Assembly: GCA_016201275.1 (NCBI GenBank)
Contig: JACQDB010000043.1
Location: forward strand, 339 to 64,338
DNA: 64,000 nt
From: Acidobacteriota bacterium
Lineage (GTDB): Bacteria; Acidobacteriota; Blastocatellia; UBA7656
Direction: 5' to 3'
Shown: positions 4,715 to 59,450 of the stretch, piece after piece
Position numbering within the stretch: position 1 is the first letter of the stretch
Layout of the letters: each line of letters opens with the position of its first letter
Position numbers and translations under genes: made by a program
Notes under the pieces: generated by a model
Seen by the model: the letters and a program-made list of their open reading frames with translations, nothing else
Told to the model about the DNA's origin: nothing
Databases searched by the model: none

Positions 4715-4767
4715 GTTGAGCAGCGGTCTGTGAGCGCTGGACTGGCGGTCATAGACCGCTGCTCAAC
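4715..4767. terminator. 15-bp perfect inverted repeat gttgagcagcggtct/agaccgctgctcaac (23-nt loop) in kinase-eda spacer; structured RNA/terminator-like
   Basis: Seen directly; no downstream T-run, so may be attenuator/processing element rather than intrinsic terminator. Confidence 0.4.
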
Positions 4768-4941
4768 CGTATGCTATTTCTTGCCGCTTCCCTGAAAATT
4801 GTGGCTGAAAGAACCGGCAAAACGTGAAGGCTTTTTCAAGGCTCTGTACAGGCAACCACCGCAGGGTTGCCCGTATCAGGTTGCATTTAATTTCAGCCAA
4901 CTTCCTTACCGGTTATCACAAAGTTTCGGAAAGAGTGACAC

Positions 4942-38150: not shown

Positions 38151-38280
38151 CGAAGTCTCCTAAGAAGCTAGTTTGTATTCAGAATAATTGCCACGCTTCA
38201 GCCTGATAGAATTTGAAAGACCGATATAGCAAGGGTTCGCACCATGACAGACATCTGACAATCTGCCTCGGAGGGGCAAA

Positions 38281-38446
38281 GGAGATTAGCCAGTGGTGCA
38301 GCCACTGGAAAAGAATCGCCCCTTAGAATTATTTAGCCCGGAAAGGGCGATAGAAAACCAGCTTTCATCTTTCATCCCGCGCCCCTTCAGGGCGCGATTG
38401 ATTACGAAGGCTTTCGTCCAGTGGCTGCACCACTGGCTAATCTCCA
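38281..38446. repeat. Perfect 28-bp inverted repeat ggagattagccagtggtgcagccactgg / ccagtggctgcaccactggctaatctcc in nuoM-nuoL spacer
   Basis: Arms 38281-38308 and 38419-38446; ~110-nt loop containing a second palindrome cgcgccccttcagggcgcg. Confidence 0.6.
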
Positions 38447-38577
38447 TCGCGCTTTCAGCGCGAACACAAAGCTCTATCTCTTTTCAAAGACCTTGGCTGA
38501 AAATTTCAAGTACCTAAAACGGCTCGAAAGATTAAAACGAAAATCAAACAGCAAAAACGGCGATAAGCAAAGCCACA

Positions 38578-40995
38578 TCACTTCGCCCCGAACAAGCCTT
38601 TGAGGGTCGCAGAGATCGCCGGATAAATGTAAAACGCCACAATGATAAACAAGCCCAGCGTAAAGACCAGCACATAGTTTTGCCAGAAGCCGGTTTGAAA
38701 AGTACGCAGCACCAGCGACCCGCCTTTGCTGATCCACCCCGTCGCGTTGACCAATAAATCAATCACGTATTTGTCCCACAGATTGCTCAGACGCGCCCAC
38801 AAACGGGTCAACGCGCCCGCACCGTTTACGCCGCCATCCACCACCGTCGCGTCCACCGCCCACAAAGCGTTGTTGACGACTTTACCTGCTGCTACGCCTT
38901 TTACGTCGAGCAAGTAATCCCAATACCACTTGTTGAAACTGAGTTTGTACAGCGGCTGCAATTTCGCGCCCCACGCTTTCGCCAGTCCGGGTTTATCTAA
39001 ATAAAAAACTTTTGCCAGATACATACCAAGCAAAGCGACGAGTACGGAAGCCATCATCAAAATAAGTTCGAGCATCTGGAACGGTTTGTGTTCGCCTTCT
39101 TCGTGCGTTGCTTGCGAGGTTGCTTGCGCTTCGCTGGCAGTAGATTCAGCAGCGTTGTGCGCTTCACTGGCAGTGGTTTGCGGCGTGCCATGCGCTTCGA
39201 CAGTGGCGGTCGTGGCGTGTTGCGGTGTGGCGTGAACTTTTTCAATCACCGGATCAAGCCAATGCTCGAAGGCACTGGCGTGCGGAATACCAAGCAGCCC
39301 TATGAAAAGCGAGAAAGCCGCCAGCACGATTAACGGAATCGTCATGCTCTTGGGCGATTCGTGCGGCTCAAAATGATGATGCGCGGCGGTGTGCGTAACA
39401 AAGGGATCGCTGGCGTCTTTCGCGCCGACGTGTTCACCTGGTTGATGATGCGGACGGTCGCCTGCCGAAGCGGTCACGGCGTCGTGCGGTTTCAAATCCT
39501 TATCGTAAGCGGCAGCGTGCGCTTCGTCGGCCTCGCCACCTGCGTGAACTTTGCGAAAGCGCTCTTCGCCCCAGAACGTCAAAGCCATCAAGCGCGTCAT
39601 GTAAAACGCCGTGATGCCAGCGGTGAACAAGCCGACAATCCACAAAATTTTCGCGCCGCCGAAGCGCGTTGTATCAAAGGTATTCCAGAGAATTTCATCT
39701 TTCGACCAGAAGCCTGCCCATAGGGGAATGCCGCAGATGGCTAGCCAGCCCATCAGCATGGTCTTGTAAGTCGTCGGCAGATATTTTTTCAAGCCGCCCA
39801 TGCGCGGCATCTCCTGTTCGTGGTGCATACCATGTATGACCGAACCGGAGCCGAGGAAAAGCAGAGCTTTGAAAAAAGCGTGGGTGAAGACGTGAAAGAT
39901 AGCGGCTACGAAAGCGCCTACGCCTGCGCCTAAAAACATAAAGCCGAGTTGCGAGACCGTCGAATAAGCGAGAACTTTTTTGATGTCGGTTTGCGTGATG
40001 CCTATGGTTGCGGCGATGAATGCCGTCAAACAACCGACCACCGCGACCACCATCATCATGGTCGTCGAGCGTTGAAAAAAGAAATTGGTGCGCGTCACCA
40101 TAAAGACGCCTGCGGTCACCATAGTCGCCGCGTGTATCAAGGCAGACACCGGCGTGGGGCCTGCCATAGCGTCCGGCAACCAGATGAATAAAGGAATCTG
40201 CGCGCTCTTGCCGGTCGCCCCGATGAACAAGCCCAGCGCAATCCAACTCATCAAACCGAACGCGCCCAGCGCTTCCGGCGGATAGGCTTTCGCCAGTGCC
40301 GCCAGATCATGAAACTGCAAAGTGCCGAACATAGCAAAGACGCCAAAGATGGCCAGGGCAAAGCCTAAATCGCCTATGCGGTTGACGACGAAAGCTTTTT
40401 TGGCGGCGTCGCCCGCTTCCTGTCGGTTGATGTAATAGCCGATCAGCAGGTAGGAACATAATCCCACGCCTTCCCAGCCGACGAACATAATCATGAAGTT
40501 CGATCCCATCACCAACAGCAGCATCATGAACATAAACAGATTCAGGTACGAGAAGAAGCGATAGAAGCCGGGGTCGCCGTGCATATAGCCGGTCGCGAAG
40601 ATGTGAATCAAAAAGCCTACGAAGGTGACGACGAACATCATGACCAGCGAGAGTTGGTCTATTTGATAGCTCCACTCGATATTGAAATTCGCCAGCTTGC
40701 CTTTGTCTGCGCCTTGCGTGAGATGAGCGCGTCCGCCAGGCATCCAGGTAAAGCTGAAGCCGCCGGGTTCTTTGCTTGTGATATAAGGCTTGTCTGCGTT
40801 GTTGGGATTGAAACTGGTTTTGTATTCCACGAATGCGCCTATGGTAATCAACAGCGACAGCCCGATGACACCGCAGGCAATCCACGACACGACCTTTTCG
40901 CTGAGGTGCAGTTTTTTGCCCAAGAGAAAATTGATAAGGAAACCCAACAGTGGAAAGACAGGAATCAGCCAGACGAGTTTTAACATAATAGTCAT
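38578..40995 (-). CDS. nuoL: NADH-quinone oxidoreductase subunit L, with ~150-aa His/Ala/Thr-rich insertion
   Basis: 'WLPDAMAGPTPVSALIHAATMVTAG'; 805 aa vs ~610-650 typical; insertion region 'EADEAHAAAYDKDLKPHD...HHHFEPHESPK...HATPQHATTATVEAHGTPQ'. Confidence 0.85.
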   Translation of the reverse strand: MTIMLKLVWLIPVFPLLGFLINFLLGKKLHLSEKVVSWIACGVIGLSLLITIGAFVEYKTSFNPNNADKPYITSKEPGGFSFTWMPGGRAHLTQGADKGKLANFNIEWSYQIDQLSLVMMFVVTFVGFLIHIFATGYMHGDPGFYRFFSYLNLFMFMMLLLVMGSNFMIMFVGWEGVGLCSYLLIGYYINRQEAGDAAKKAFVVNRIGDLGFALAIFGVFAMFGTLQFHDLAALAKAYPPEALGAFGLMSWIALGLFIGATGKSAQIPLFIWLPDAMAGPTPVSALIHAATMVTAGVFMVTRTNFFFQRSTTMMMVVAVVGCLTAFIAATIGITQTDIKKVLAYSTVSQLGFMFLGAGVGAFVAAIFHVFTHAFFKALLFLGSGSVIHGMHHEQEMPRMGGLKKYLPTTYKTMLMGWLAICGIPLWAGFWSKDEILWNTFDTTRFGGAKILWIVGLFTAGITAFYMTRLMALTFWGEERFRKVHAGGEADEAHAAAYDKDLKPHDAVTASAGDRPHHQPGEHVGAKDASDPFVTHTAAHHHFEPHESPKSMTIPLIVLAAFSLFIGLLGIPHASAFEHWLDPVIEKVHATPQHATTATVEAHGTPQTTASEAHNAAESTASEAQATSQATHEEGEHKPFQMLELILMMASVLVALLGMYLAKVFYLDKPGLAKAWGAKLQPLYKLSFNKWYWDYLLDVKGVAAGKVVNNALWAVDATVVDGGVNGAGALTRLWARLSNLWDKYVIDLLVNATGWISKGGSLVLRTFQTGFWQNYVLVFTLGLFIIVAFYIYPAISATLKGLFGAK

Positions 40996-41095
40996 TAGTC
41001 CTTAGTCCTTAGTCCCTAGTCCTTAGTCTTCAGTTAAAGGTTTCGGCTCGTGAAAGCATTTAACTAAGGACTAGGGACTAAGGACTAAGGACTAA
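40996..41095. repeat. Intercistronic tandem-heptamer hairpin (AGTCCTT x5 / AAGGACT x4) between nuoK stop and nuoL start
   Basis: tagtccttagtccttagtccctagtccttagtcttcag ... ctaaggactagggactaaggactaaggactaa. The left arm abuts the nuoL start codon (40993-40995) and the right arm ends 1 nt from the nuoK stop. Confidence 0.7.
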
Positions 41096-41096
41096 A

Positions 41097-41579
41097 CTAA
41101 AATTTCAGTAAATCAATTTCGTCAATCGCTATGGTTTCGCGGTTGCGGAACAGCGCGATGACGATGCCCAAGCCGACGGCGGCTTCTGCAGCGGCGACAA
41201 CAATGATGAAAATGGTAAAGACCGGCCCGGCCAACGGGTTGACGGTCATACCGGCGCTTTTGAATGCTGTATTGAACGCTTCCTGATTGATTTGAAAGTA
41301 GCGCGAGAACGCGATCAGGTTCAGATTAACCGCGTTCAAAATTAATTCGATGGACATGAAAATGATGATGATGTTGCGGCGCGATAACACTCCGGCGACG
41401 CCTACGACGAAGAGCAGAAAACTCAACATCATGAAATTGACCAGCGTCGGCTCGAAGCGTTCCAGATTCGGCCAGACATACTTGTACGAAACGAAGCCAA
41501 CCGCACCTAAGAAAAGTACGGTGAAGATAAGGTTCGGGAGGTTGTCGCGTGAAAAGAATTTTTTAAGTCCAGAGGGCAT
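41097..41579 (-). CDS. nuoK: NADH-quinone oxidoreductase subunit K with N-terminal extra TM extension
   Basis: Canonical NuoK core from '[16 protein letters not shown]...[15 protein letters not shown]'; upstream in-frame ATG at 41579 has a GAGGAG SD at 9 nt, supporting the 160-aa form with an additional helix '[16 protein letters not shown]'. Confidence 0.8.
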
Positions 41580-41749: not shown

Positions 41750-42349
41750 TTATTCGCTGGGTTCGTAAAGCTTCTCTTGTTTGGTGCCGCGAGCCAACAA
41801 CACCGCGCCCACCATTGCTACCAGCAACAACACCGAAGCGATTTCAAACGGCAAGGCGGCTTCTTTGTAAAGCGATTGGCCTACCTCTTGAGTGTCGGTG
41901 GAAATCTGCGAGCCAGCGCCTGACTTGGTGGATTCCGCTGGCGCTTCTTTGCTTTGCGCGGCGGCCTCGGAAGGCTGCGGGCGAAATGCCGGTTGCGCCG
42001 AATTCATGGCAAAGAAAAACGACACCGCCAATAGCAAAGTAAGCATCACCGCTGGCCACATCTGCCCGGTGTAGAGTTTTACTTTCGCCTCTTCTTCGGC
42101 GCGGGTCTGCACCAACATGATGACAAACAGAAACAGCACCATCACGCCGCCTACATAAACCAGTATCTGCACACCAGCGACAAATTCGGCGCGCAGCAGG
42201 ATGAACAACAAGGCGATGTTGACCAGCGTTGAAATCAGAAAGAGAGCCGAATGCACGGCCAATCGCGCCGACACCACCAACACGCCCATGATGAGCGTTG
42301 AAAATGCCAGCACATAAAACAGCACTGCTTCCCAACCGTGTAATTGCAT
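41750..42349 (-). CDS. nuoJ: NADH-quinone oxidoreductase subunit J
   Basis: 5-TM ND6-like; 'MQLHGWEAVLFYVLA...'; hydrophilic A/S/E-rich segment before last helix. Confidence 0.8.
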   Translation of the reverse strand: MQLHGWEAVLFYVLAFSTLIMGVLVVSARLAVHSALFLISTLVNIALLFILLRAEFVAGVQILVYVGGVMVLFLFVIMLVQTRAEEEAKVKLYTGQMWPAVMLTLLLAVSFFFAMNSAQPAFRPQPSEAAAQSKEAPAESTKSGAGSQISTDTQEVGQSLYKEAALPFEIASVLLLVAMVGAVLLARGTKQEKLYEPSE

Positions 42350-42350
42350 C

Positions 42351-42452
42351 GTAGTCCTTAATCCTTAGTCCTTAGTCCTTAGTTCCCTTTCTTTGATATT
42401 CAGGTCGGTGGCAGATTTCTCTCACCGACTAATGACCAGGGACTAAGGACTA
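42351..42452. repeat. Intercistronic tandem-heptamer hairpin between nuoI stop and nuoJ start
   Basis: gtagtccttaatccttagtccttagtccttagttccc ... gactaatgaccagggactaaggactat; the right arm overlaps the nuoI TAG; nested 7-bp stem gtcggtg/caccgac inside the loop. Confidence 0.7.
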
Positions 42453-42995
42453 TTTCGTGTACTTGACGTAGCTGATGCCTTTTTCGAGCATCTCGCGGTC
42501 CCAACGAAAGCCTGAGCGATGATAGACGGCAAGCTCGAAACCTTGAGTCAATTCTAGGCAATCCGTTGGGCAGGCTTCCGAACAGAGATTGCAAAACATA
42601 CAACGCGAGGTGTCGAAGGTAAACGTCGTCAGCACTTTTTTCTTGTTCACCTTTGCGCCATCGCGCACTTCGCGGCGAATCGAACCGACATCTATGCAGT
42701 CCACCGGACAGGCCAGCGCGCACAGGTCGCAAGCGATGCACAAGGTGCCGCCGGTTTCCGGGTCAAGGTTCAAACGCGGCGCGCCTCGGTAACGCTCCGA
42801 CACTCGCGCCGCCTCAAGCGGGTACTGCTCGGTGTAGAGCGCTTGATGCGGATTGCCGCCATCGCGTTTTTCATACAGAGCGCGAATATTATATTTGAAG
42901 GTTACGGCCAGACCCTTGAAGAGGTCTAAAAGTAACAGCCGTTTGATAATGCCGGAGAAACTGCGCTTTCTTCCGGCTACGTTTATTGCTGGCAT
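42450..42995 (-). CDS. nuoI: NADH-quinone oxidoreductase subunit I (2x[4Fe-4S] ferredoxin)
   Basis: 'CIACDLCALACPVDC' and 'CMFCNLCSEACPTDC'. Confidence 0.9.
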   Translation of the reverse strand: MPAINVAGRKRSFSGIIKRLLLLDLFKGLAVTFKYNIRALYEKRDGGNPHQALYTEQYPLEAARVSERYRGAPRLNLDPETGGTLCIACDLCALACPVDCIDVGSIRREVRDGAKVNKKKVLTTFTFDTSRCMFCNLCSEACPTDCLELTQGFELAVYHRSGFRWDREMLEKGISYVKYTK

Positions 42996-43077: not shown

Positions 43078-43245
43078 TTGCGGCTCTGCCGCTTTGAGAT
43101 GCGGAAAGGCTCGGACTTTCCGGCAAGGCGACAGGAACGCTTCAACGGCTACGCCGCCAATTGGGGCGCAGCCCCGAAACCTTTCAACGAATCCTCCGGC
43201 GGGGCAAAGCCACCGCCGCACATCAAAGCGGCAAAGCCGCCTGAC
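43078..43245. repeat. Diverged third copy of the palindromic MITE-like element (see 55700 and 57131)
   Basis: gccgctttgagatgcggaaaggc ... ccgcacatcaaagcggcaaagccgc mirrors the core gccgctttgaggtgcggagaggc ... ccgcacctcaaagcggcatagccgc of the other copies. Lies in the 345-bp nuoI-nuoH spacer. Confidence 0.5.
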
Positions 43246-43340: not shown

Positions 43341-44705
43341 TTATTCCGCTGCTTCGGCGTTTTCCATCTTTTTCAAACGCTCGCGGCGCAACTTGAATTG
43401 TAACTGGCGCTGCTCGTCGAGATTGAAATCATTGGAGCGCCGATTGATTGCCGCAAGCAGCGCCCAGACCATTGGAACCGTAATGAGAAAACCTGTAGCT
43501 ACGAAATAGATAACGCCTGCCCACTGGGTTGGCACTAATCGCCCACTCACATCTTTCATGAAATTAAATCTCAAGAAAAATTTTAGAAAGTCCGGGAGTG
43601 AGGCTTTTGTACTAGGCAATGCAAGCACATACCAGATAGCGGTCATCACGATGTTTGCGAGTCCCGCCGGAATCATCCACTTCCAGCCAATCTCCATCAA
43701 CTGGTCGTAGCGATAACGCGGCCACGTCCAGCGTATCCACATGAAAGCGTAAATCAACACCATCACCTTCGTGGCGAAAATAACGATGCTCAAAAAGACG
43801 AACAGATTGGGCGAAGACTTTTCGATAAGGCTCAGGCCGGGAAACGACCAGCCGCCCAGATAAAGTGTCACGGCAATCGAAGAGGTGACAATCATCGCGG
43901 TGTATTCCGCCATAAAAAACAGCGCCCAGCGAAAGCCCGAATACTCGGTGTGATAACCGGCGACGAGTTCCGATTCGGCTTCCGGCAAATCAAAAGGTGC
44001 GCGATTGGTTTCGCCTAACGCGCAGATGACGTAAACCAGAAAGCCCAGCGGTTGAAAGAAGAAATACCATACGCCATCGGCGCGTTGCGCTTCGACAATG
44101 CCATTCATCGAAAGCGTGCGCGCAAACATCAAGGCTCCGATAATCGAAAGCCCCATGCCGATTTCATAACTCAACATCTGCGCCGACGAACGCAATGCGC
44201 CAAGCAGTGAATACTTCGAGTTGGAAGACCAACCGGCCAACACCAACCCCAACACCGCGACCGACGAAACCGCCAGAATAAACAGCAGGCCAATGTTGAC
44301 GTTGGCAATCGTTCCCCAGCCTGCGCCCCACGGCACCACCGCAAGAACGACCAGAGCGGCGACCACGGCGATAATCGGCGCGAGTTGAAAAATCGCTTTG
44401 TCGGCTTTAATCGGGATGATGTCTTCTTTGAGCAGCAGTTTCAAACCATCGGCAGCCGGTTGCAAAAGTCCCCAAGGGCCTACGCGCATAGGGCCAAGCC
44501 GCGCCTGCATGAAGGCCGACACCTTGCGCTCCAGATAAACCAGATAGGCAACCAGGGTCAAGATGATGAACAGCACCACGATGATTTGAATGAGCGGCCA
44601 GACGATGTACTCCGACCAAAAGACATTCGGCTGTTTCTCTTTGGTGAGATATTCTCGCACCCATTGCGGCGCAACCAGGAGTAATGTCGAAAGTATAGCT
44701 GTCAT
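43341..44705 (-). CDS. nuoH: NADH-quinone oxidoreductase subunit H, with ~80-aa C-terminal extension
   Basis: 'EAESELVAGYHTEYSG' signature; 454 aa vs ~330-350 typical; extra C-terminal TM + basic coiled tail. Confidence 0.9.
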   Translation of the reverse strand: MTAILSTLLLVAPQWVREYLTKEKQPNVFWSEYIVWPLIQIIVVLFIILTLVAYLVYLERKVSAFMQARLGPMRVGPWGLLQPAADGLKLLLKEDIIPIKADKAIFQLAPIIAVVAALVVLAVVPWGAGWGTIANVNIGLLFILAVSSVAVLGLVLAGWSSNSKYSLLGALRSSAQMLSYEIGMGLSIIGALMFARTLSMNGIVEAQRADGVWYFFFQPLGFLVYVICALGETNRAPFDLPEAESELVAGYHTEYSGFRWALFFMAEYTAMIVTSSIAVTLYLGGWSFPGLSLIEKSSPNLFVFLSIVIFATKVMVLIYAFMWIRWTWPRYRYDQLMEIGWKWMIPAGLANIVMTAIWYVLALPSTKASLPDFLKFFLRFNFMKDVSGRLVPTQWAGVIYFVATGFLITVPMVWALLAAINRRSNDFNLDEQRQLQFKLRRERLKKMENAEAAE

Positions 44706-44717
44706 AATAATCCAAGT

Positions 44718-44832
44718 GCTGAGGACTGAGGGCTAAGGACTGAGTAAGAAATTAGACGCAAGCTATCAGGTTTGCGATTTGCCAATCATTGCAGACAAGT
44801 TTTTCACTCAGTCCTCAGTCCTCAGTCCTTTA
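44718..44832. repeat. Intercistronic hairpin, GACTGAG/CTCAGTC heptamer variant, between nuoD stop and nuoH start
   Basis: gctgaggactgagggctaaggactgagtaag ... cactcagtcctcagtcctcagtccttta; right arm includes the nuoD TAA. Confidence 0.65.
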
Positions 44833-45963: not shown

Positions 45964-45969
45964 AAGTAT

Positions 45970-46065
45970 GAGTCCTTAGTCCTCAGTCCTTAGTCCTCAG
46001 CTTGTCGTCACACGCTTTCGTTCGAGCGAATAACTAATGACCAGGGACTAAGGACTAGGGACTAA
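45970..46065. repeat. Intercistronic tandem-heptamer hairpin between nuoC stop and nuoD start
   Basis: gagtccttagtcctcagtccttagtcctcag ... taactaatgaccagggactaaggactagggactaa; the right arm is near-identical to that of the 42351 hairpin (ctaatgaccagggactaaggacta). Confidence 0.7.
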
Positions 46066-46068
46066 AAT

Positions 46069-47106
46069 CTATCTGCGTTGGGCGTATTTCACATCAATCA
46101 AACTGGTATCATAATCCACTTCGCGATAGTCAATGTGTTTATCCGTCCACTCGTTGTCGCGGTATTCAATCGGATACTCTTTGCGAAGCGGATAGCCCGG
46201 CCAATCTTCGGGCAACAGTATGCGCCGCAAATCCGGGTGGCCGTCAAATTTTACGCCGAACATATCAAAGACTTCGCGCTCCATCCAATTCGCGCCTGCC
46301 CAAATTGAGGTGACGCTGGGCGCGGCTTCGCCTTCAGCAATCGCCGTCTTGACGCGCAGGCGTTGATTTTTGGATACCGAATATAAATTGGCCACGATGT
46401 CAAATTCCGCGCCAGTTTTGTCTGGCCAGTGCAGTGCCGTCAAATCGGCGCACATGGTAAACGCGCCGTCTTCGTCATCGTGCAGGAAGCGGCACAGTTT
46501 CAAATACGCATCTTTGTTGACGCGAATGATGCGTTGTCCGAAGGTCTTGACGGTTTCGGTGATGGCGTCGGGGAATTTGGCTTTGAGTTTATCAATGAAG
46601 GGATCGTCTTTAATCTCTTCGGTGACGGTTGGCCCTTTTTTAGCAGGCGGCGCGGGTTTGGCAGCGCCCGCCGTAGCGGCTGATGCAGGCGCTTTGGGCG
46701 GCGCGGCGGCTTTCGGCGGCGCAGGCTTTGCGGCAGCTTCCGGCTTGGCTGCGGCATCAGCGGTGGGCGCTTTTGCTTCAGCGCTCGGCGTTGCTTCTGC
46801 TTTTGCTTCAGCGCTCGGTGCGGCGACTTTTGCAGGGACTTCGGGTGTTGCCGGTGCTGTCGGTTTTTCGGTTGCGGCTACAGTCGAAGTTTCGGCCAGA
46901 CTATCGGCAGTCGTATTGCCTGGGCTGGCGCTGGCTTCGGGTTGAGTTTCGCTTGGTGTTTCAGTGGGTAAAGTAGGTGCGGCGACGTTGGCCGGTTGAG
47001 CGGTTGAAGCAACCTCGGCCTCAACCGTTTTCGCGTCCGTCGGTTCAGCATTCTCCGGGACTTCCTGCGTATCTTTGCTTTCGTCTGACATAATGGCAAC
47101 CTGCAT
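46069..47106 (-). CDS. nuoC: NADH-quinone oxidoreductase subunit C (30-kDa) with ~170-aa N-terminal Ala/Pro/Thr/Glu-rich low-complexity extension
   Basis: C-terminal half 'GANWMEREVFDMFGVKFDGHPDLRRILLPEDWPGYPLRKEYP' is canonical; N-terminal half is compositionally biased (PTAPATPEVPAKVAAPSAEAKAEATPSAEAKAP...). Confidence 0.85.
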   Translation of the reverse strand: MQVAIMSDESKDTQEVPENAEPTDAKTVEAEVASTAQPANVAAPTLPTETPSETQPEASASPGNTTADSLAETSTVAATEKPTAPATPEVPAKVAAPSAEAKAEATPSAEAKAPTADAAAKPEAAAKPAPPKAAAPPKAPASAATAGAAKPAPPAKKGPTVTEEIKDDPFIDKLKAKFPDAITETVKTFGQRIIRVNKDAYLKLCRFLHDDEDGAFTMCADLTALHWPDKTGAEFDIVANLYSVSKNQRLRVKTAIAEGEAAPSVTSIWAGANWMEREVFDMFGVKFDGHPDLRRILLPEDWPGYPLRKEYPIEYRDNEWTDKHIDYREVDYDTSLIDVKYAQRR

Positions 47107-53615: not shown

Positions 53616-54140
53616 TCATCTCCCCAGCCAATGCCCTAACCACCCGCCGTACAGACTGGCCCCAGGATCGAGTATGGATACGCCATAGACGAAACCAGCG
53701 ATTCCCGCAGCGATGACCATCGGCTTCAACCAGCCTTCAGAGTGCTGCCGCAAATACCACAGCGTGTACAAGGGAAGGGCGACAAGAAAGCCCAAAAAAT
53801 AGAGCAGCGCCAACATTGCCAGCAGCCAGAAAAAGGCTTGACGCTCGCGGTCGCCTTGCCGCCTTTCCATATCCTCCTTCTCCATTTGTTGGCTGGCTTG
53901 TTTGCGTAACGGTTCAACCTGGAACAAATCTTTTTGCTCCCATCGGCGATAGGCTTGTGCCAGACCAGGCCGCATATCCATCAGCAATTGAACGAGCAAC
54001 AACAGCAGCGTTGGCAGCACCACAGCCAACGGCACCATACGCGCTACGCGCCCCAGCCCCAAGGTAAAACCGAATATCACAAGGGCAAAAGCCAATAACC
54101 CAAAAGTGAACCAGGCTCTTTGCTTGAACCTCAGCCTCAA
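53616..54140 (-). CDS. tctB: Tripartite tricarboxylate transporter small membrane subunit TctB-like
   Basis: 174 aa, 4 predicted TM helices, 4-bp overlap with tctA stop; assignment by size/context. Confidence 0.45.
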   Translation of the reverse strand: MRLRFKQRAWFTFGLLAFALVIFGFTLGLGRVARMVPLAVVLPTLLLLLVQLLMDMRPGLAQAYRRWEQKDLFQVEPLRKQASQQMEKEDMERRQGDRERQAFFWLLAMLALLYFLGFLVALPLYTLWYLRQHSEGWLKPMVIAAGIAGFVYGVSILDPGASLYGGWLGHWLGR

Positions 54141-55651
54141 CGCTTTTCTGCCCTCCTTGCTCGCAACGCCTGAATATAGGGCAAGGTCAAAGTGGCTACG
54201 GTTAGCGCCATCAGCGACAAAGTAACCGGGCGCGTCCAGAAGTTGATGCGCCCAAGCTGATGCAGCCGTATGGTGATGTGCAGATTGCTTTCAAACAACG
54301 GCCCTAACACTAGCGCAATCACCAGAGGGATGCGCGGCCAGTCGTACTTTTTCATGCCGTAGCCGAGGACGCCAAACAGGAAAGCGACAGCGACATCTTC
54401 AATTCGGCCTTTGTAAAGATAGGCACCCAAAGCGGCGAGCGCAAAAATAATTGGCGCAAGCAACTCGGTGCGAATGACCGTCAGTTTCGCCAACGGCTTA
54501 ACCATCGCTACGCCGAGAATGGAGGTCAGCCAGTTGGACAGGAACAAGGACCAGATCAACACAAAGACCAGGGTCAGATGCTGGGTCATCAATTCTTTTC
54601 CGGGAGCCAGCCCGTGCAAAGTGAGCGCCCCCAACAGCAGAGCGGTGCCTTCATTGCCGGGTATGCCAAATGCCAGCGTTGGCACCAGTGACGCGCCGTC
54701 TTTGGCATCGTGAGCCGCCTCCGGCGCAATGACGCCACGAATATCGCCATGACCGAAGTTTTCTCGATGGGTGCGTGCCGTCAACACCGCCTGTCCGTAA
54801 GCGACAAAACTGGCGACCGTGCCGCCGACCGCAGGAATCATGCCGATGACCGTACCGATAAGCGAACTGCGTAGGAACAATCCGAAGTTTTGAAAGACCG
54901 CTAAAACCCCTTCTCGAAGCGAGCCGCCCAACTCTTCCAAGTGGTGCTTGCCGGAGATCGTTCCTTTGCCCGTCACCGATAACGTGGTGATTTCAGCAAT
55001 GGCAAAAAGACCCAATAAAATCGGCACTAATCCGAGTTTGTCTTGCAGATAGAGGCTGCCGAAGGTGTAGCGCAGTTCGGCGGTCTGCGGATCAACGCCG
55101 ATAAAGCTAATCAGGAAACCGATCCCGGCGGCGGCCAGTCCTTTGATTACCGAGCCGCGCGTAATTGTCACAATGGTCGCCAACCCCCAGATTGCCAGCA
55201 TCAGAAATTCCGCCGAGCCGAATATCAAAATCGCTCCGCGCATAAACGGTATCAAGAGAATCAGCGCGACGATTCCAAAGGTTGAACCCAGCGCCGAAGA
55301 GGTGGCGGAACAGCCTATAGCGGTGCGCGCTTTCCCCTGTTGCGCCATCGGATGACCGTCAATCATGGTGGCGGTGCTGGGCGTAGTGCCAGGAATATTG
55401 AAGAGGATTGCGGTCACCGAACCCATGAAGGTCGCGCCGCCAACAAAAGCCCCAAAAAGCAGCATAATCGGCAGCGGCTCCCATTTGAGGGTGAAGGAAA
55501 TCGCCAACGCCATCAGGGTAAAACCGCTGATGCCGGGGACGAAAGCGAAGAGCATCGCCAACAACGTACCGATGATTGGATAAATAATATTGGGCCAGGA
55601 AAAGACCAGCAGAAAGGCTTCCCAGGCGGCTTGCAGTACGGGTTCTAACAT
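54137..55651 (-). CDS. tctA: Tripartite tricarboxylate transporter permease TctA
   Basis: 504 aa; DUF112 duplicated-repeat large permease with 'GxxxGxxPG(I/L)(S/G)' motifs. Confidence 0.8.
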   Translation of the reverse strand: MLEPVLQAAWEAFLLVFSWPNIIYPIIGTLLAMLFAFVPGISGFTLMALAISFTLKWEPLPIMLLFGAFVGGATFMGSVTAILFNIPGTTPSTATMIDGHPMAQQGKARTAIGCSATSSALGSTFGIVALILLIPFMRGAILIFGSAEFLMLAIWGLATIVTITRGSVIKGLAAAGIGFLISFIGVDPQTAELRYTFGSLYLQDKLGLVPILLGLFAIAEITTLSVTGKGTISGKHHLEELGGSLREGVLAVFQNFGLFLRSSLIGTVIGMIPAVGGTVASFVAYGQAVLTARTHRENFGHGDIRGVIAPEAAHDAKDGASLVPTLAFGIPGNEGTALLLGALTLHGLAPGKELMTQHLTLVFVLIWSLFLSNWLTSILGVAMVKPLAKLTVIRTELLAPIIFALAALGAYLYKGRIEDVAVAFLFGVLGYGMKKYDWPRIPLVIALVLGPLFESNLHITIRLHQLGRINFWTRPVTLSLMALTVATLTLPYIQALRARRAEKR

Positions 55652-55699
55652 TGAGTTACTCAGCGTCTTTCGGAGTCTTCACTCATTTTGATTTGTAAC

Positions 55700-55950
55700 A
55701 ACCCAGCCAGTGCTTGCGGCTATGCCGCTTTGAGGTGCGGAGAGGCTATGCCTTTCCGTAAACGGCGCTCCCCACTCTCGCGGCTGCGCCGCCTGTGGGC
55801 TTCTGCCGCCAAGCTTTTCTGAGGCGCAGCCTCCGGTGCGGCGCAGCCGCGAAAAAGGAGAGCCAACCGAACGGAGAGTCACAGACTCTCCGCACCTCAA
55901 AGCGGCATAGCCGCACAGCATTCAACTCTCACAACAAGGCTGGGTAGTTA
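55700..55950. repeat. Palindromic MITE-like element, copy 1 (~250 bp), between tctA and tctC
   Basis: Termini acccagccagtgcttgcggc ... ggctgggtagttact; internal inverted cores gccgctttgaggtgcggagag / ctctccgcacctcaaagcggc and the palindrome ggagagtcacagactctcc. Confidence 0.65.
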
Positions 55951-55977
55951 CTTTGCCTTTTTACTTTTGCCTTACTT

Positions 55978-57120
55978 TTAGGCTCTGATTTTGCGTATCG
56001 CGTCTTGAATTATCGGTATAAATATTTCAGCCTGCACCGCCGCCGCTTGCAGGTCTGACAACGCTTCATCGGCTCTTGCCACATCAAGCGAGCGCTTGGC
56101 TTTGGCGGCTGCCGCTTGCAATTGCGTATCGGTCAGCGTTTCGTAGAGGCTCTGTTCCAGACAACGAAATAAATCCGCTGGCAGATTCGGCGGAGCCGCA
56201 ACGAGCAAACCTGCGCCGATCAATTTTGCCAGCGCAAGAGCATCTGCGTCGCTTTGCCGAGGGTCGCGTCCCAATTCAACAGCGCGACGAGCTACAATGC
56301 CTTCCGTGCCACAAAGCACGGCAACCCCATCCAGCGCAGTGTGCGACGAGAGTCTTTGCGGACTGATTTGCAAGAGGGCGCGCAAATCCTGCGCCTCCAA
56401 GCGGTCGAGTACGGACTCGAAGCTGAAGGAGACCACATCCACTTCGCCACGCATGGCGGCAAGCGCAGTTTCGCGGCTTCCCGCAAAACCTGCAAGGTAC
56501 GCCGTATTGATTCCCAAAAGCTGCGCTGCCACCGCGCTAGTGACAAAAGTGGTGCTGCCGACTTCGGACATACCAAAAACAATCGGTCTTTTCTGCGACT
56601 CCGCCAGCACGTCTTCCAGATTGCGAAAAGGAGAATTGCCCGCTGTTGTCCATACTACTTGATTACGCGCCAAGCGTCCCAAAATGGTGAAGTCCGTTGC
56701 CGGATTGGGGATGTTGTGCGCGCCGGTCAATGCCGCCACCATCAGCCCAGGCGCGTTCAATATGCCCAGCGTCAAACCATCGGGTAAGCTCCCTTTGAGC
56801 TTATTGGCAGAGATGACGCCCCCGGCTCCGGAAGTATTTTCAATGACAATTTCTGCGCCGGTCTTTTTCTGATAAAACGGCTCCAGCAATCGCGCATAGA
56901 TGTCATAGCCGCCGCCTGCCGGAAACGGCACCAGCCAACGCACCTGCTTGCCTGTCAATGGCGAACACGGAGTTTGACGGATGGCTTTCGGTGAACACCC
57001 GGTGTGAGTGAACAAAAACGCGCCGCCGCCGACAATGCCTAAACGCTTTGTCATCTCGCGCCGGGAAATTTTTGCTGACCGGGATGGCCGCATTTTGCGT
57101 CGCTGTTCTTTATATGTCAT
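55978..57120 (-). CDS. tctC: Tripartite tricarboxylate transporter substrate-binding protein TctC (Bug family), Tat-type signal
   Basis: 'WLVPFPAGGGYDIYARLL', 'GAGGVISANKL'; N-terminal 'SRREMTKRLGIVGGGAFLF' twin-Arg-like leader. Confidence 0.8.
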   Translation of the reverse strand: MTYKEQRRKMRPSRSAKISRREMTKRLGIVGGGAFLFTHTGCSPKAIRQTPCSPLTGKQVRWLVPFPAGGGYDIYARLLEPFYQKKTGAEIVIENTSGAGGVISANKLKGSLPDGLTLGILNAPGLMVAALTGAHNIPNPATDFTILGRLARNQVVWTTAGNSPFRNLEDVLAESQKRPIVFGMSEVGSTTFVTSAVAAQLLGINTAYLAGFAGSRETALAAMRGEVDVVSFSFESVLDRLEAQDLRALLQISPQRLSSHTALDGVAVLCGTEGIVARRAVELGRDPRQSDADALALAKLIGAGLLVAAPPNLPADLFRCLEQSLYETLTDTQLQAAAAKAKRSLDVARADEALSDLQAAAVQAEIFIPIIQDAIRKIRA

Positions 57121-57130
57121 ATAAGAGGTA

Positions 57131-57328
57131 ACTACCCAGTCAGTGCTTGCGGCGGTGCCGCTATGATGTGCGGATAGGCTAAACCTTTCCGTAAGCTACG
57201 TCTCCCAACTCTCGCGGCTGCGCCGCGAAGAAAGAGCGCCAGTTCACCGGAGAGTCGCAGACTCTCCGCACCTCAAAGCGGCACCGCCGCACAGAATTCA
57301 ACCCTCACAAAAAGGCTGGGTAGTTACT
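57131..57328. repeat. Palindromic MITE-like element, copy 2 (~195 bp), immediately upstream of tctC
   Basis: Same termini and cores as copy 1 (actacccagtcagtgcttgcggc ... cggagagtcgcagactctccgcacctcaaagcggcaccgccgcacag ... ggctgggtagttact); lacks ~55 bp present in copy 1. Confidence 0.65.
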
Positions 57329-57499
57329 ATATAGCGGCTTGCAGATGTGTGCGATTTGTTGAGAGGCGGTCTGTGACCGCCGTGCTGTGGTCACAGACTG
57401 CCTCTCAACTAGGTGTCGTGGGTCGCAGGCAAATGAAATTCGCTATAAGAAACACGAGAAGCGAGGTTGGAGTAGCGCCTTGAAACGATGGCGCACGCT

Positions 57500-59149: not shown

Positions 59150-59228
59150 TCGGGGGACAGAAAGTTAGAGAAGGTTTGGCGTACCGCGCAACAGGGCGGA
59201 AGATCACGATGGCGAAAGATTCCGCTTG

Positions 59229-59382
59229 AAGGCTACTGCCATGAAGTGAAGGGAATCTTTGAACCACGAAGACCACCAAGAGCACGAAGCGATTAAACAA
59301 AACTCGGTTTTTCCTGTTTCGTGTTCTTCGTGTCCTTCGTGGTGAAAAGAATCTCATGCTTCACTTCATGCCATTAGCCTTC
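59229..59382. repeat. Long imperfect hairpin (~60-bp arms) built from CACGAAG / CTTCGTG short tandem units
   Basis: gaaggctactgccatgaagtgaagggaatctttgaaccacgaagaccaccaagagcacgaag ... cgtgttcttcgtgtccttcgtggtgaaaagaatctcatgcttcacttcatgccattagccttc. Lies between the Oar-like receptor stop and the ligase start. Confidence 0.55.
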
Positions 59383-59450
59383 AGGCGGTACTCCAAACTC
59401 CCCGAAGTATTGAGACGATACGAAAAATCAGACCTCTCTCTTTACCACTC

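Follow-up and report, generated by a model that had tools for sequence, protein, structure and literature searches.

The subject of this report is a group of short intergenic repeats in a 64,000-nucleotide (nt) stretch of DNA, here called the window as a whole, from an Acidobacteriota bacterium of the Blastocatellia (assembly GCA_016201275.1, contig JACQDB010000043.1, positions 339 to 64,338 of the forward strand). Two of the repeats, copies 1 and 2, lie in the same orientation on either side of tctC, which encodes a periplasmic receptor, and a third, copy 3, occupies the spacer between nuoH and a 4Fe-4S nuoI-like gene. The repeats resemble the repetitive extragenic palindromic (REP) sequences, and the REP doublets forming hairpins (REPINs), that accompany REP-associated tyrosine transposases (RAYTs). 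The operon order is tctC-tctA-tctB, and because tctC is the first gene, copy 1 stands inside the operon, starting 26 nt from the tctC stop codon; copy 2 lies upstream of tctC, its nearest end 7 nt from the first ATG. The genes were assigned with Pfam, and the bit scores are those of a covariance model of the arm, which is described further on.

55695..55951 (+), copy 1, 257 nt, full-length REPIN-like element in the tctC-tctA spacer
55695..55706 (+), left terminal 12-mer of copy 1, GTAACAACCCAG
55716..55758 (+), left arm of copy 1 (63.9 bits): hairpin 1 GCGGCTATGCCGC 55716-55728, linker TTTGAGGTG 55729-55737, hairpin 2 CGGAGAGGCTATGCCTTTCCG 55738-55758
55780..55850 (+), central modules of copy 1: hairpin 3 GCGGCTGCGCCGC 55780-55792, degenerate hairpin 55796-55810, 10-nt filler 55811-55820, GAGGCGCAGCCTC 55821-55833, GCGGCGCAGCCGC 55838-55850
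55872..55914 (-), right arm of copy 1 (66.4 bits): hairpin CGGAGAGTCACAGACTCTCCG 55872-55892, linker CACCTCAAA 55893-55901, GCGGCATAGCCGC 55902-55914
55940..55951 (+), right terminal 12-mer of copy 1, CTGGGTAGTTAC
57128..57327 (+), copy 2, 200 nt, orientation as copy 1, with one central hairpin, GCGGCTGCGCCGC, 57214-57226
57149..57191 (+), left arm of copy 2 (52.2 bits): GCGGCGGTGCCGC, TATGATGTG, CGGATAGGCTAAACCTTTCCG
57248..57290 (-), right arm of copy 2 (62.3 bits): CGGAGAGTCGCAGACTCTCCG, CACCTCAAA, GCGGCACCGCCGC
43080..43240 (+), core of copy 3, 161 nt, of another subfamily, between nuoH and the nuoI-like gene
55978..57120 (-), tctC, periplasmic receptor, bracketed by copies 1 and 2
54137-55651 (-), tctA
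53616-54140 (-), tctB
43341-44705, nuoH
42450-42995, 4Fe-4S nuoI-like gene

Copies 1 and 2 are 81-85% identical across the parts that they share, and copy 1 carries 57 nt more. Both have the termini GTAAC(T/A)ACCCAG ... CTGGGTAGTTAC, which form 12-nt terminal inverted repeats, perfect in copy 2 and with one mismatch in copy 1. By chance, 0.07 occurrences of the terminal 12-mer and 0.2 of the inverted core CCGCACCTCAAAGCGGCA would be expected in the window; the observed numbers are four and six, the core being present twice in each of the three elements. Over the 64 kb, the covariance model recovered exactly the six known arms, at 52-66 bits, and nothing beyond them above 18 bits. The same 12-nt termini are present on a family copy in another metagenome-assembled genome (MAG; locus L010); they were not found in copy 3 or its subfamily. 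The right arm of copy 3 is identical at 48 of 48 positions to that of copy L023 in the SOY_29 MAG, whose TctC is 77% identical to the TctC of the window, and this likeness ends at the outer hairpins: the element is conserved across the genomes and its flanks are not.

Most of what an earlier note, made from the sequence alone, had said about the elements themselves is borne out. Its three copies, two of them direct around tctC, are all present with small corrections to its description, as are the diverged third copy in the nuoI-nuoH spacer (core at 43080-43240), the shared termini and the inverted internal cores. Copy 1 is indeed the longer one, by exactly 57 nt where about 55 bp had been proposed. 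The "central palindrome" ggagagtc.cagactctcc, on the other hand, is not central, being the 21-nt hairpin of the right arm. The copies had also been called non-coding and highly structured, which held: the elements fold much more stably than shuffled sequence (z of -8 to -14), and the RNA folds predicted for the mRNA strand reach -111 and -178 kcal/mol (z of -8 and -14). These large RNA-fold z-scores arise from a long fold-back, which is not conserved. An open reading frame (ORF) of 80 amino acids (aa) at 55679-55921 (-) lies on copy 1; it has no Pfam match and is spurious, a product of the GC-rich repeat.

Each element consists of two arms in inverted orientation and is built as a chain of small hairpins, not as one long palindrome. 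Three parts make up the arm. Hairpin 1, GCGGCnnnGCCGC, is 13 nt long and has a loop of 3 nt on a stem of 5 bp; it is joined by a conserved 9-nt linker, which reads TTTGATGTG in most copies but TTTGAGGTG or TATGATGTG in the window, to the 21-nt hairpin 2, of the form CGGnnnGnC-nnn-GnCnnnCCG, with a 9-bp stem and likewise a 3-nt loop. Up to two more 13-nt hairpins follow each arm, so placed that they stand between the arms (e.g., GCGGCTGCGCCGC, GAGGCGCAGCCTC), and the family elements measure 142-273 nt from outer hairpin to outer hairpin. As single-stranded DNA, each arm of the window folds to exactly its two local hairpins.

Further support for the hairpins came from an ungapped alignment of 74 distinct arms, in which 95.9% of the cells of the 21-nt hairpin are paired and seven of the nine pairs of its stem are altered on both sides. 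The two-sided changes amount to 102 cells against 26 in shuffles, a value reached by none of 500 shuffles, and sliding the partner columns as a control brought pairing below 50%. Selection of the arms had taken in hairpin 1 and the linker and had gone no further than the third base of hairpin 2; the covariation in the rest of hairpin 2 is therefore no artefact of it. The two arms of a complete element never have the same 21-nt hairpin (0/36), the median identity being 13 of 21 positions. Since the hairpins of one element differ and each is self-complementary, the local hairpins are the conserved feature, and a single long-range hairpin, tried as the conserved structure, was rejected for the same reason.

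The distribution of the family was determined by scanning species-representative genomes with the arm pattern GCGGCNNNGCCGCTWTGANNTGCGG, and the counts are lower bounds. The pattern occurs at no fewer than 64 loci, at least 57 of them in Acidobacteriota-type MAGs (Blastocatellia, Pyrinomonadaceae, Chloracidobacterium), and three MAGs have at least 12-18 family contigs each. Among the matches listed, seven fall in other phyla; they are single, have no second hairpin and are chance matches. An nhmmer search with copy 2 gave 57 separate copies, and the pattern search 111 arms. According to rough ORF calls, the neighbouring genes are co-directional for 18 elements, convergent for 5 and divergent for 1, while apparent overlaps with genes (9 elements) are mostly short ORFs made by the element itself. 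The family is thus almost always intergenic, in MAGs of Blastocatellia and Pyrinomonadaceae. The GTC/GGC heterodimers showed no orientation bias relative to transcription (6 versus 4), and a metagenome scan with the window-specific outer ACYCAGYCAGTGMTTGCGGC gave 24 loci, all of them chance matches in unrelated genes. One MAG labelled "uncultured Clostridia bacterium" (CAZPQE01) carries the family on at least 12 contigs (L003, L005, L006, L010, L015, L017, L025, L031, L037, L056, L060 and L062); probably it was mislabelled or wrongly binned.

Screening all fetched loci for motifs turned up two ORFs that carry HUH and Y..NP. The one in locus L036 encodes 182 aa (573-1121) and lies between left modules at 465-560 and right modules at 1124-1218, the left set consisting of hairpin 1, TTTGATGTG, hairpin 2, GCGGCTGCGCCGC and GAGGCTACGCCTC, and the right set being its mirror image. 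The L036 protein matches Pfam Y1_Tnp and scores 94.9 bits on the NCBIfam model NF047646 (REP_Tyr_transpos), whose cut-off is 80; a score of 115.6 bits was also obtained on this model. On the IS200 model NF033573 it reaches 26.1 bits, below the cut-off of 55. Homologues at E <= 1e-10 number 1604, and many carry the name RayT in their sources; in 17 homologues the HUH histidines, W113, Y134 and N138-P139 (YIHxNP) are invariant. A single-sequence search of the PDB with the RAYT gave no match; a profile search succeeded, with 4ER8, the TnpA-REP of Escherichia coli, as the top match (E = 1.5e-10).

The modules stand in the same order around four further homologues (70, 77, 62 and 66% identical), in L065, L067, L068 and L096, so that a RAYT gene bracketed by family modules is found at five related loci (L036, L065/66, L067, L068 and L096). 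The linker varies from locus to locus, yet it is complementary across the two sides (CTCGGCTGTG/CACAGCCGAG in L065; GCCGATGCG/CGCATCGGC in L068), and in the arm pairs of L036, L065, L067 and L068, the stem of the 21-nt hairpin is the same to the left and to the right of the RAYT (4/4). On the 3' side of the L096 gene stands the terminus TTGTGTAGATAC, which is like the termini of the SOY_29 MAG copies and like CTGGGTAGTTAC of the window. On its 5' side, at 4740-4900, partial right arms are repeated three times in tandem, at intervals of about 62 nt, beside a complete doublet, a cluster upstream of the RAYT such as is known from REPtrons.

In the related genomes, the master unit is therefore a RAYT gene between two arm sets. 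Copy 1 corresponds to the L036 unit without its ORF: the order of the modules and the lengths of the spacers are the same, and the 10-nt filler of copy 1 (55811-55820) sits where L036 has its RAYT ORF. In copy 1, the 57 nt that are missing from copy 2 separate two central hairpins that are almost identical, and the shortening would fit a deletion by recombination or slippage between them.

The history of the tct operon was read from relatives. The TctC of the window is 100% identical to HY231_08565 of an "Acidobacteria bacterium" MAG at NCBI, and the order outer membrane protein (OMP) gene, gene of about 540 aa, tctC, tctA, tctB is kept in six orthologous loci. In three of these, tctC has short, element-free spacers on its two sides (42 nt on one side and none on the other, where the gene calls overlap; 3 and 16 nt; 55 and 41 nt). 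In two others, the upstream site is empty (54 nt), and the tctC-tctA spacer holds a different insert of about 175 nt. The sixth, compared in gene order only, has 234-nt spacers on both sides. The conserved order and the element-free spacers of 0-55 nt indicate that tctC is native and that the elements were inserted in existing spacers, so the two copies appear, from these comparisons, to be independent occupants of the spacers of a native operon. When the junctions of copies 1 and 2 were aligned to the empty sites, no target-site duplication was seen; the TctC proteins are 67-73% identical and the junctions blurred.

Some observations on the same spacers may be added. The different insert (L069, 2969-3187; L097, 2501-2720) is bounded by a direct repeat, ATATGAAT, of which the L070 empty site has a single copy, ATATGAAC; the insert looks like a classical miniature inverted-repeat transposable element (MITE) with a target-site duplication, in the spacer that copy 1 uses in the window. 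Nothing in the L070 empty site corresponds to the 26 nt that separate copy 1 from the tctC stop codon (55952-55977, AAGTAAGGCAAAAGTAAAAAGGCAAA in the mRNA sense); they resemble the junction GGCAAAGTAAC repeated with a stutter. Between a 549-aa ORF and copy 2 lies a 52-nt near-perfect hairpin (57359-57409, GTTGAGAGGCGGTCTGTGACC ... GGTCACAGACTGCCTCTCAAC), which is absent from the short spacers of the relatives and whose top is like the GTC-TGT-GAC hairpin of the arm.

In our judgement, the three elements very probably belong to a family of the REP, bacterial interspersed mosaic element (BIME) and REPIN type in Blastocatellia, derived from a RAYT unit and presumably mobilised by a RAYT in trans. 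This reading starts from what was observed, namely the architecture, the constraint on the hairpins, the dispersal, the presence or absence of elements at orthologous sites, and the identity of the modules with the RAYT flanks. The family is apparently uncatalogued, the kind itself being known; a literature search gave no description of it, which is weak evidence of novelty. As to the mechanism, a RAYT encoded elsewhere in the genome would recognise the arm hairpins on single-stranded DNA and would cut and rejoin at them, and this cutting and joining could spread or maintain the doublets between genes without duplication of the target. The scheme is modelled on TnpA-REP and the IS200/IS605 enzymes (Ton-Hoang 2012; Messing 2012), as these are summarised by PMC6006769. 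That the two arms of an element always differ may be due to the unstable nature of long perfect palindromes, a point discussed for REP dimers (PMC3733652).

Several points weigh against this interpretation. The 5' foot of the hairpin reads TGTG, GGTG or TGCG, not the canonical GT[AG]G; GTAG occurs only in the 12-nt terminus, at a distance of 20-37 nt beyond the arms and 3' of the hairpins, which is the opposite of the canonical REP polarity. Copies 1 and 2, with an identity of only about 81-85%, give no sign of recent activity. The 64-kb window has no RAYT gene, and for this genome we infer one that acts in trans; cleavage and transposition by the family RAYT are predicted by analogy. Moreover, the lack of a target-site duplication is a weak negative, as the genomes with empty sites have diverged.

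Three other explanations were weighed against the REP/RAYT origin. A classical MITE, i.e., an internally deleted DDE insertion sequence that is recognised by its 12-bp terminal inverted repeats and duplicates its target on insertion, would suit the perfect or nearly perfect termini of copies 2 and 1, their occurrence on the L010 copy of another MAG, and the size of 200-257 nt. However, comparison with the empty sites shows neither copy to lie between direct repeats; copy 3 and its subfamily do without the termini, their likeness stopping at the outer hairpins; and the genuine direct-repeat insert in the same spacer of the relatives looks quite different. Among the fetched loci, no DDE transposase shares the ends (GTAACTACCCAG inverted repeats), and the only coding units with the same internal modules encode Y1/HUH RAYTs. 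We therefore regard a MITE origin as very unlikely. Of the expression "MITE/REP-like" in the earlier note, the REP-like part stands, the non-autonomous, dispersed nature of the elements being supported by dozens of contigs in related MAGs, and the MITE mechanism is not supported, neither a target-site duplication nor a DDE partner having been found; the partner that carries the modules is a Y1/HUH RAYT.

That the repeats are a functional structured RNA, a leader, attenuator or stabiliser of the tctC and nuo messages and not mobile DNA, is suggested by the very stable structures on the mRNA strand, by the covariation of the hairpins, and by where copy 1 stands within the operon, 26 nt beyond the receptor stop codon, a position that resembles that of the malE-malF REP. 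This explanation is challenged by the family's occurrence beside unrelated genes in either orientation and by the same modules bracketing a transposase gene. In addition, the window has no Rfam match at the gathering threshold (only spurious sub-threshold matches to miRNA models), the elements contain no terminator-like sites, and orthologous tct operons do without the element. The earlier note had pointed to this possibility in case only these copies existed and relatives conserved them as leader or terminator of tctC; the repeats are not confined to tctC, and around tctC they are absent from both sides in three relatives and from the upstream side in two. An RNA function as the origin of the repeats is thus unlikely; an effect on RNA could still exist as a by-product. 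Even less can be said for a composite element, in which tctC was mobilised or captured by the two direct copies, as the earlier note had entertained, or is going to be lost through recombination between them. Two copies in the same orientation, 81-85% identical, around a single gene do invite it, but the gene order is kept in six relatives, three of which have element-free short spacers on both sides and two an empty upstream site, and tctC is the functional partner of the neighbouring tctA and tctB. Synteny contradicts the composite transposon, and the proposal as a whole is hardly credible.

With the REP/RAYT origin preferred, consequences for expression may be considered. As both copies lie inside or just upstream of a transcribed unit, they would give rise to very stable mRNA structures. 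In E. coli, the REPs at malE-malF protect the upstream message, and by analogy copy 1, standing after tctC, could do the same. It is also conceivable, as a tentative suggestion, that the RAYTs of this clade recognise a compound site made of two hairpins and the conserved linker TTTGATGTG, in place of the canonical REP with GTAG and a single hairpin, and that the dispersed progeny are obligate heterodimers: the arms share their 21-nt hairpin in none of the 36 dispersed elements, but its stem in all four of the RAYT-flanking pairs. If true, the compound site would be a distinct mode of recognition within the REP/RAYT systems, perhaps co-opted as operon punctuation after tctC and at nuoH-nuoI.

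What had seemed to be gene capture by MITEs thus becomes an ordinary situation, in which REP-type repeats colonise the spacers of a native transporter operon. At the same time, it adds to the few descriptions of such elements in the soil phylum Acidobacteriota a REP/RAYT family whose arm, with its several hairpins, is unusual. With the covariance model of the arm and the RAYT clade, annotators can mask repeats that spawn spurious ORFs, such as the one at 55679-55921, and the arms are a defined substrate for tests of RAYT specificity.

The window also contains other repeats. Arrays of the heptamer TTAGTCC, or its complement GGACTAA, occur at 2396-2475, 40980-41107, 42339-42454, 44800-44832 and 45968-46072, in spacers around the nuo genes and often as inverted pairs (40995-41027 and 41063-41095, 33 nt, are 100% complementary); they are a second, unrelated repeat family. 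At 38276-38450 and 59222-59388 there are palindromic intergenic elements with arms of 30-34 nt exactly 107 nt apart. Their arms contain GATTAGCC- and GCCATTAG-like motifs, and GCCATTAG is also met outside REPIN copies in other MAGs.

Among known systems, the closest in kind are the REP, BIME and REPIN sequences with their RAYTs (TnpA-REP of E. coli; the REPINs of Pseudomonas fluorescens). As there, the family consists of short extragenic hairpins in many copies, arranged in inverted pairs of two unlike units, comparable to the Y/Z heterodimers of BIMEs; the RAYT gene has these repeats on either side, as in a REPtron; and the elements take co-directional or convergent positions, with no target-site duplication seen against the diverged empty sites. 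The arm differs from a canonical REP in having two to four hairpins with 3-nt loops and a 9-nt linker instead of one 20-40-nt palindrome, and in lacking GT[AG]G at its foot. The elements, at 142-273 nt from outer hairpin to outer hairpin, are also longer, some subfamilies have extra outer modules that end in the 12-nt inverted repeat, and the host phylum is Acidobacteriota (Blastocatellia).

Bacterial MITEs such as Correia/NEMIS, RUP, ERIC and Nezha are similar in size, in their terminal inverted repeats and strong structure, and in being intergenic and co-transcribed; they are, however, derived from DDE elements and have target-site duplications, and neither feature is found here. As regards IS200/IS605, no IS200-type TnpA was encountered, the score on NF033573 being 26.1 bits against the cut-off of 55.

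Quentin et al. 2018 (PMC6006769) reported that subclass 2.6 and class 3 of the TnpA-Y1 proteins have "atypical secondary structures". Their REPtron-like genes have non-canonical flanking hairpins that also occur elsewhere in the genome, and class 3 is present in Acidobacteria. The motifs found here, DH[IVL]H and YIHxNP, are class-2-like, whereas class 3 has NHVH and YV..EQ, and the foot of this family is not CnGA. The TIRtrons, with their TIRYT proteins, of Di Nocera et al. 2013 (PMC3733652) include an Acidobacteria group (Koribacter versatilis ORF1552). Their examples come from Acidobacteriia-type genera, and they are likened to the present family by description, not by sequence; in both cases, a RAYT-like gene lies between long, partly self-complementary inverted repeats, which form moderately abundant families and often occur as dimers.

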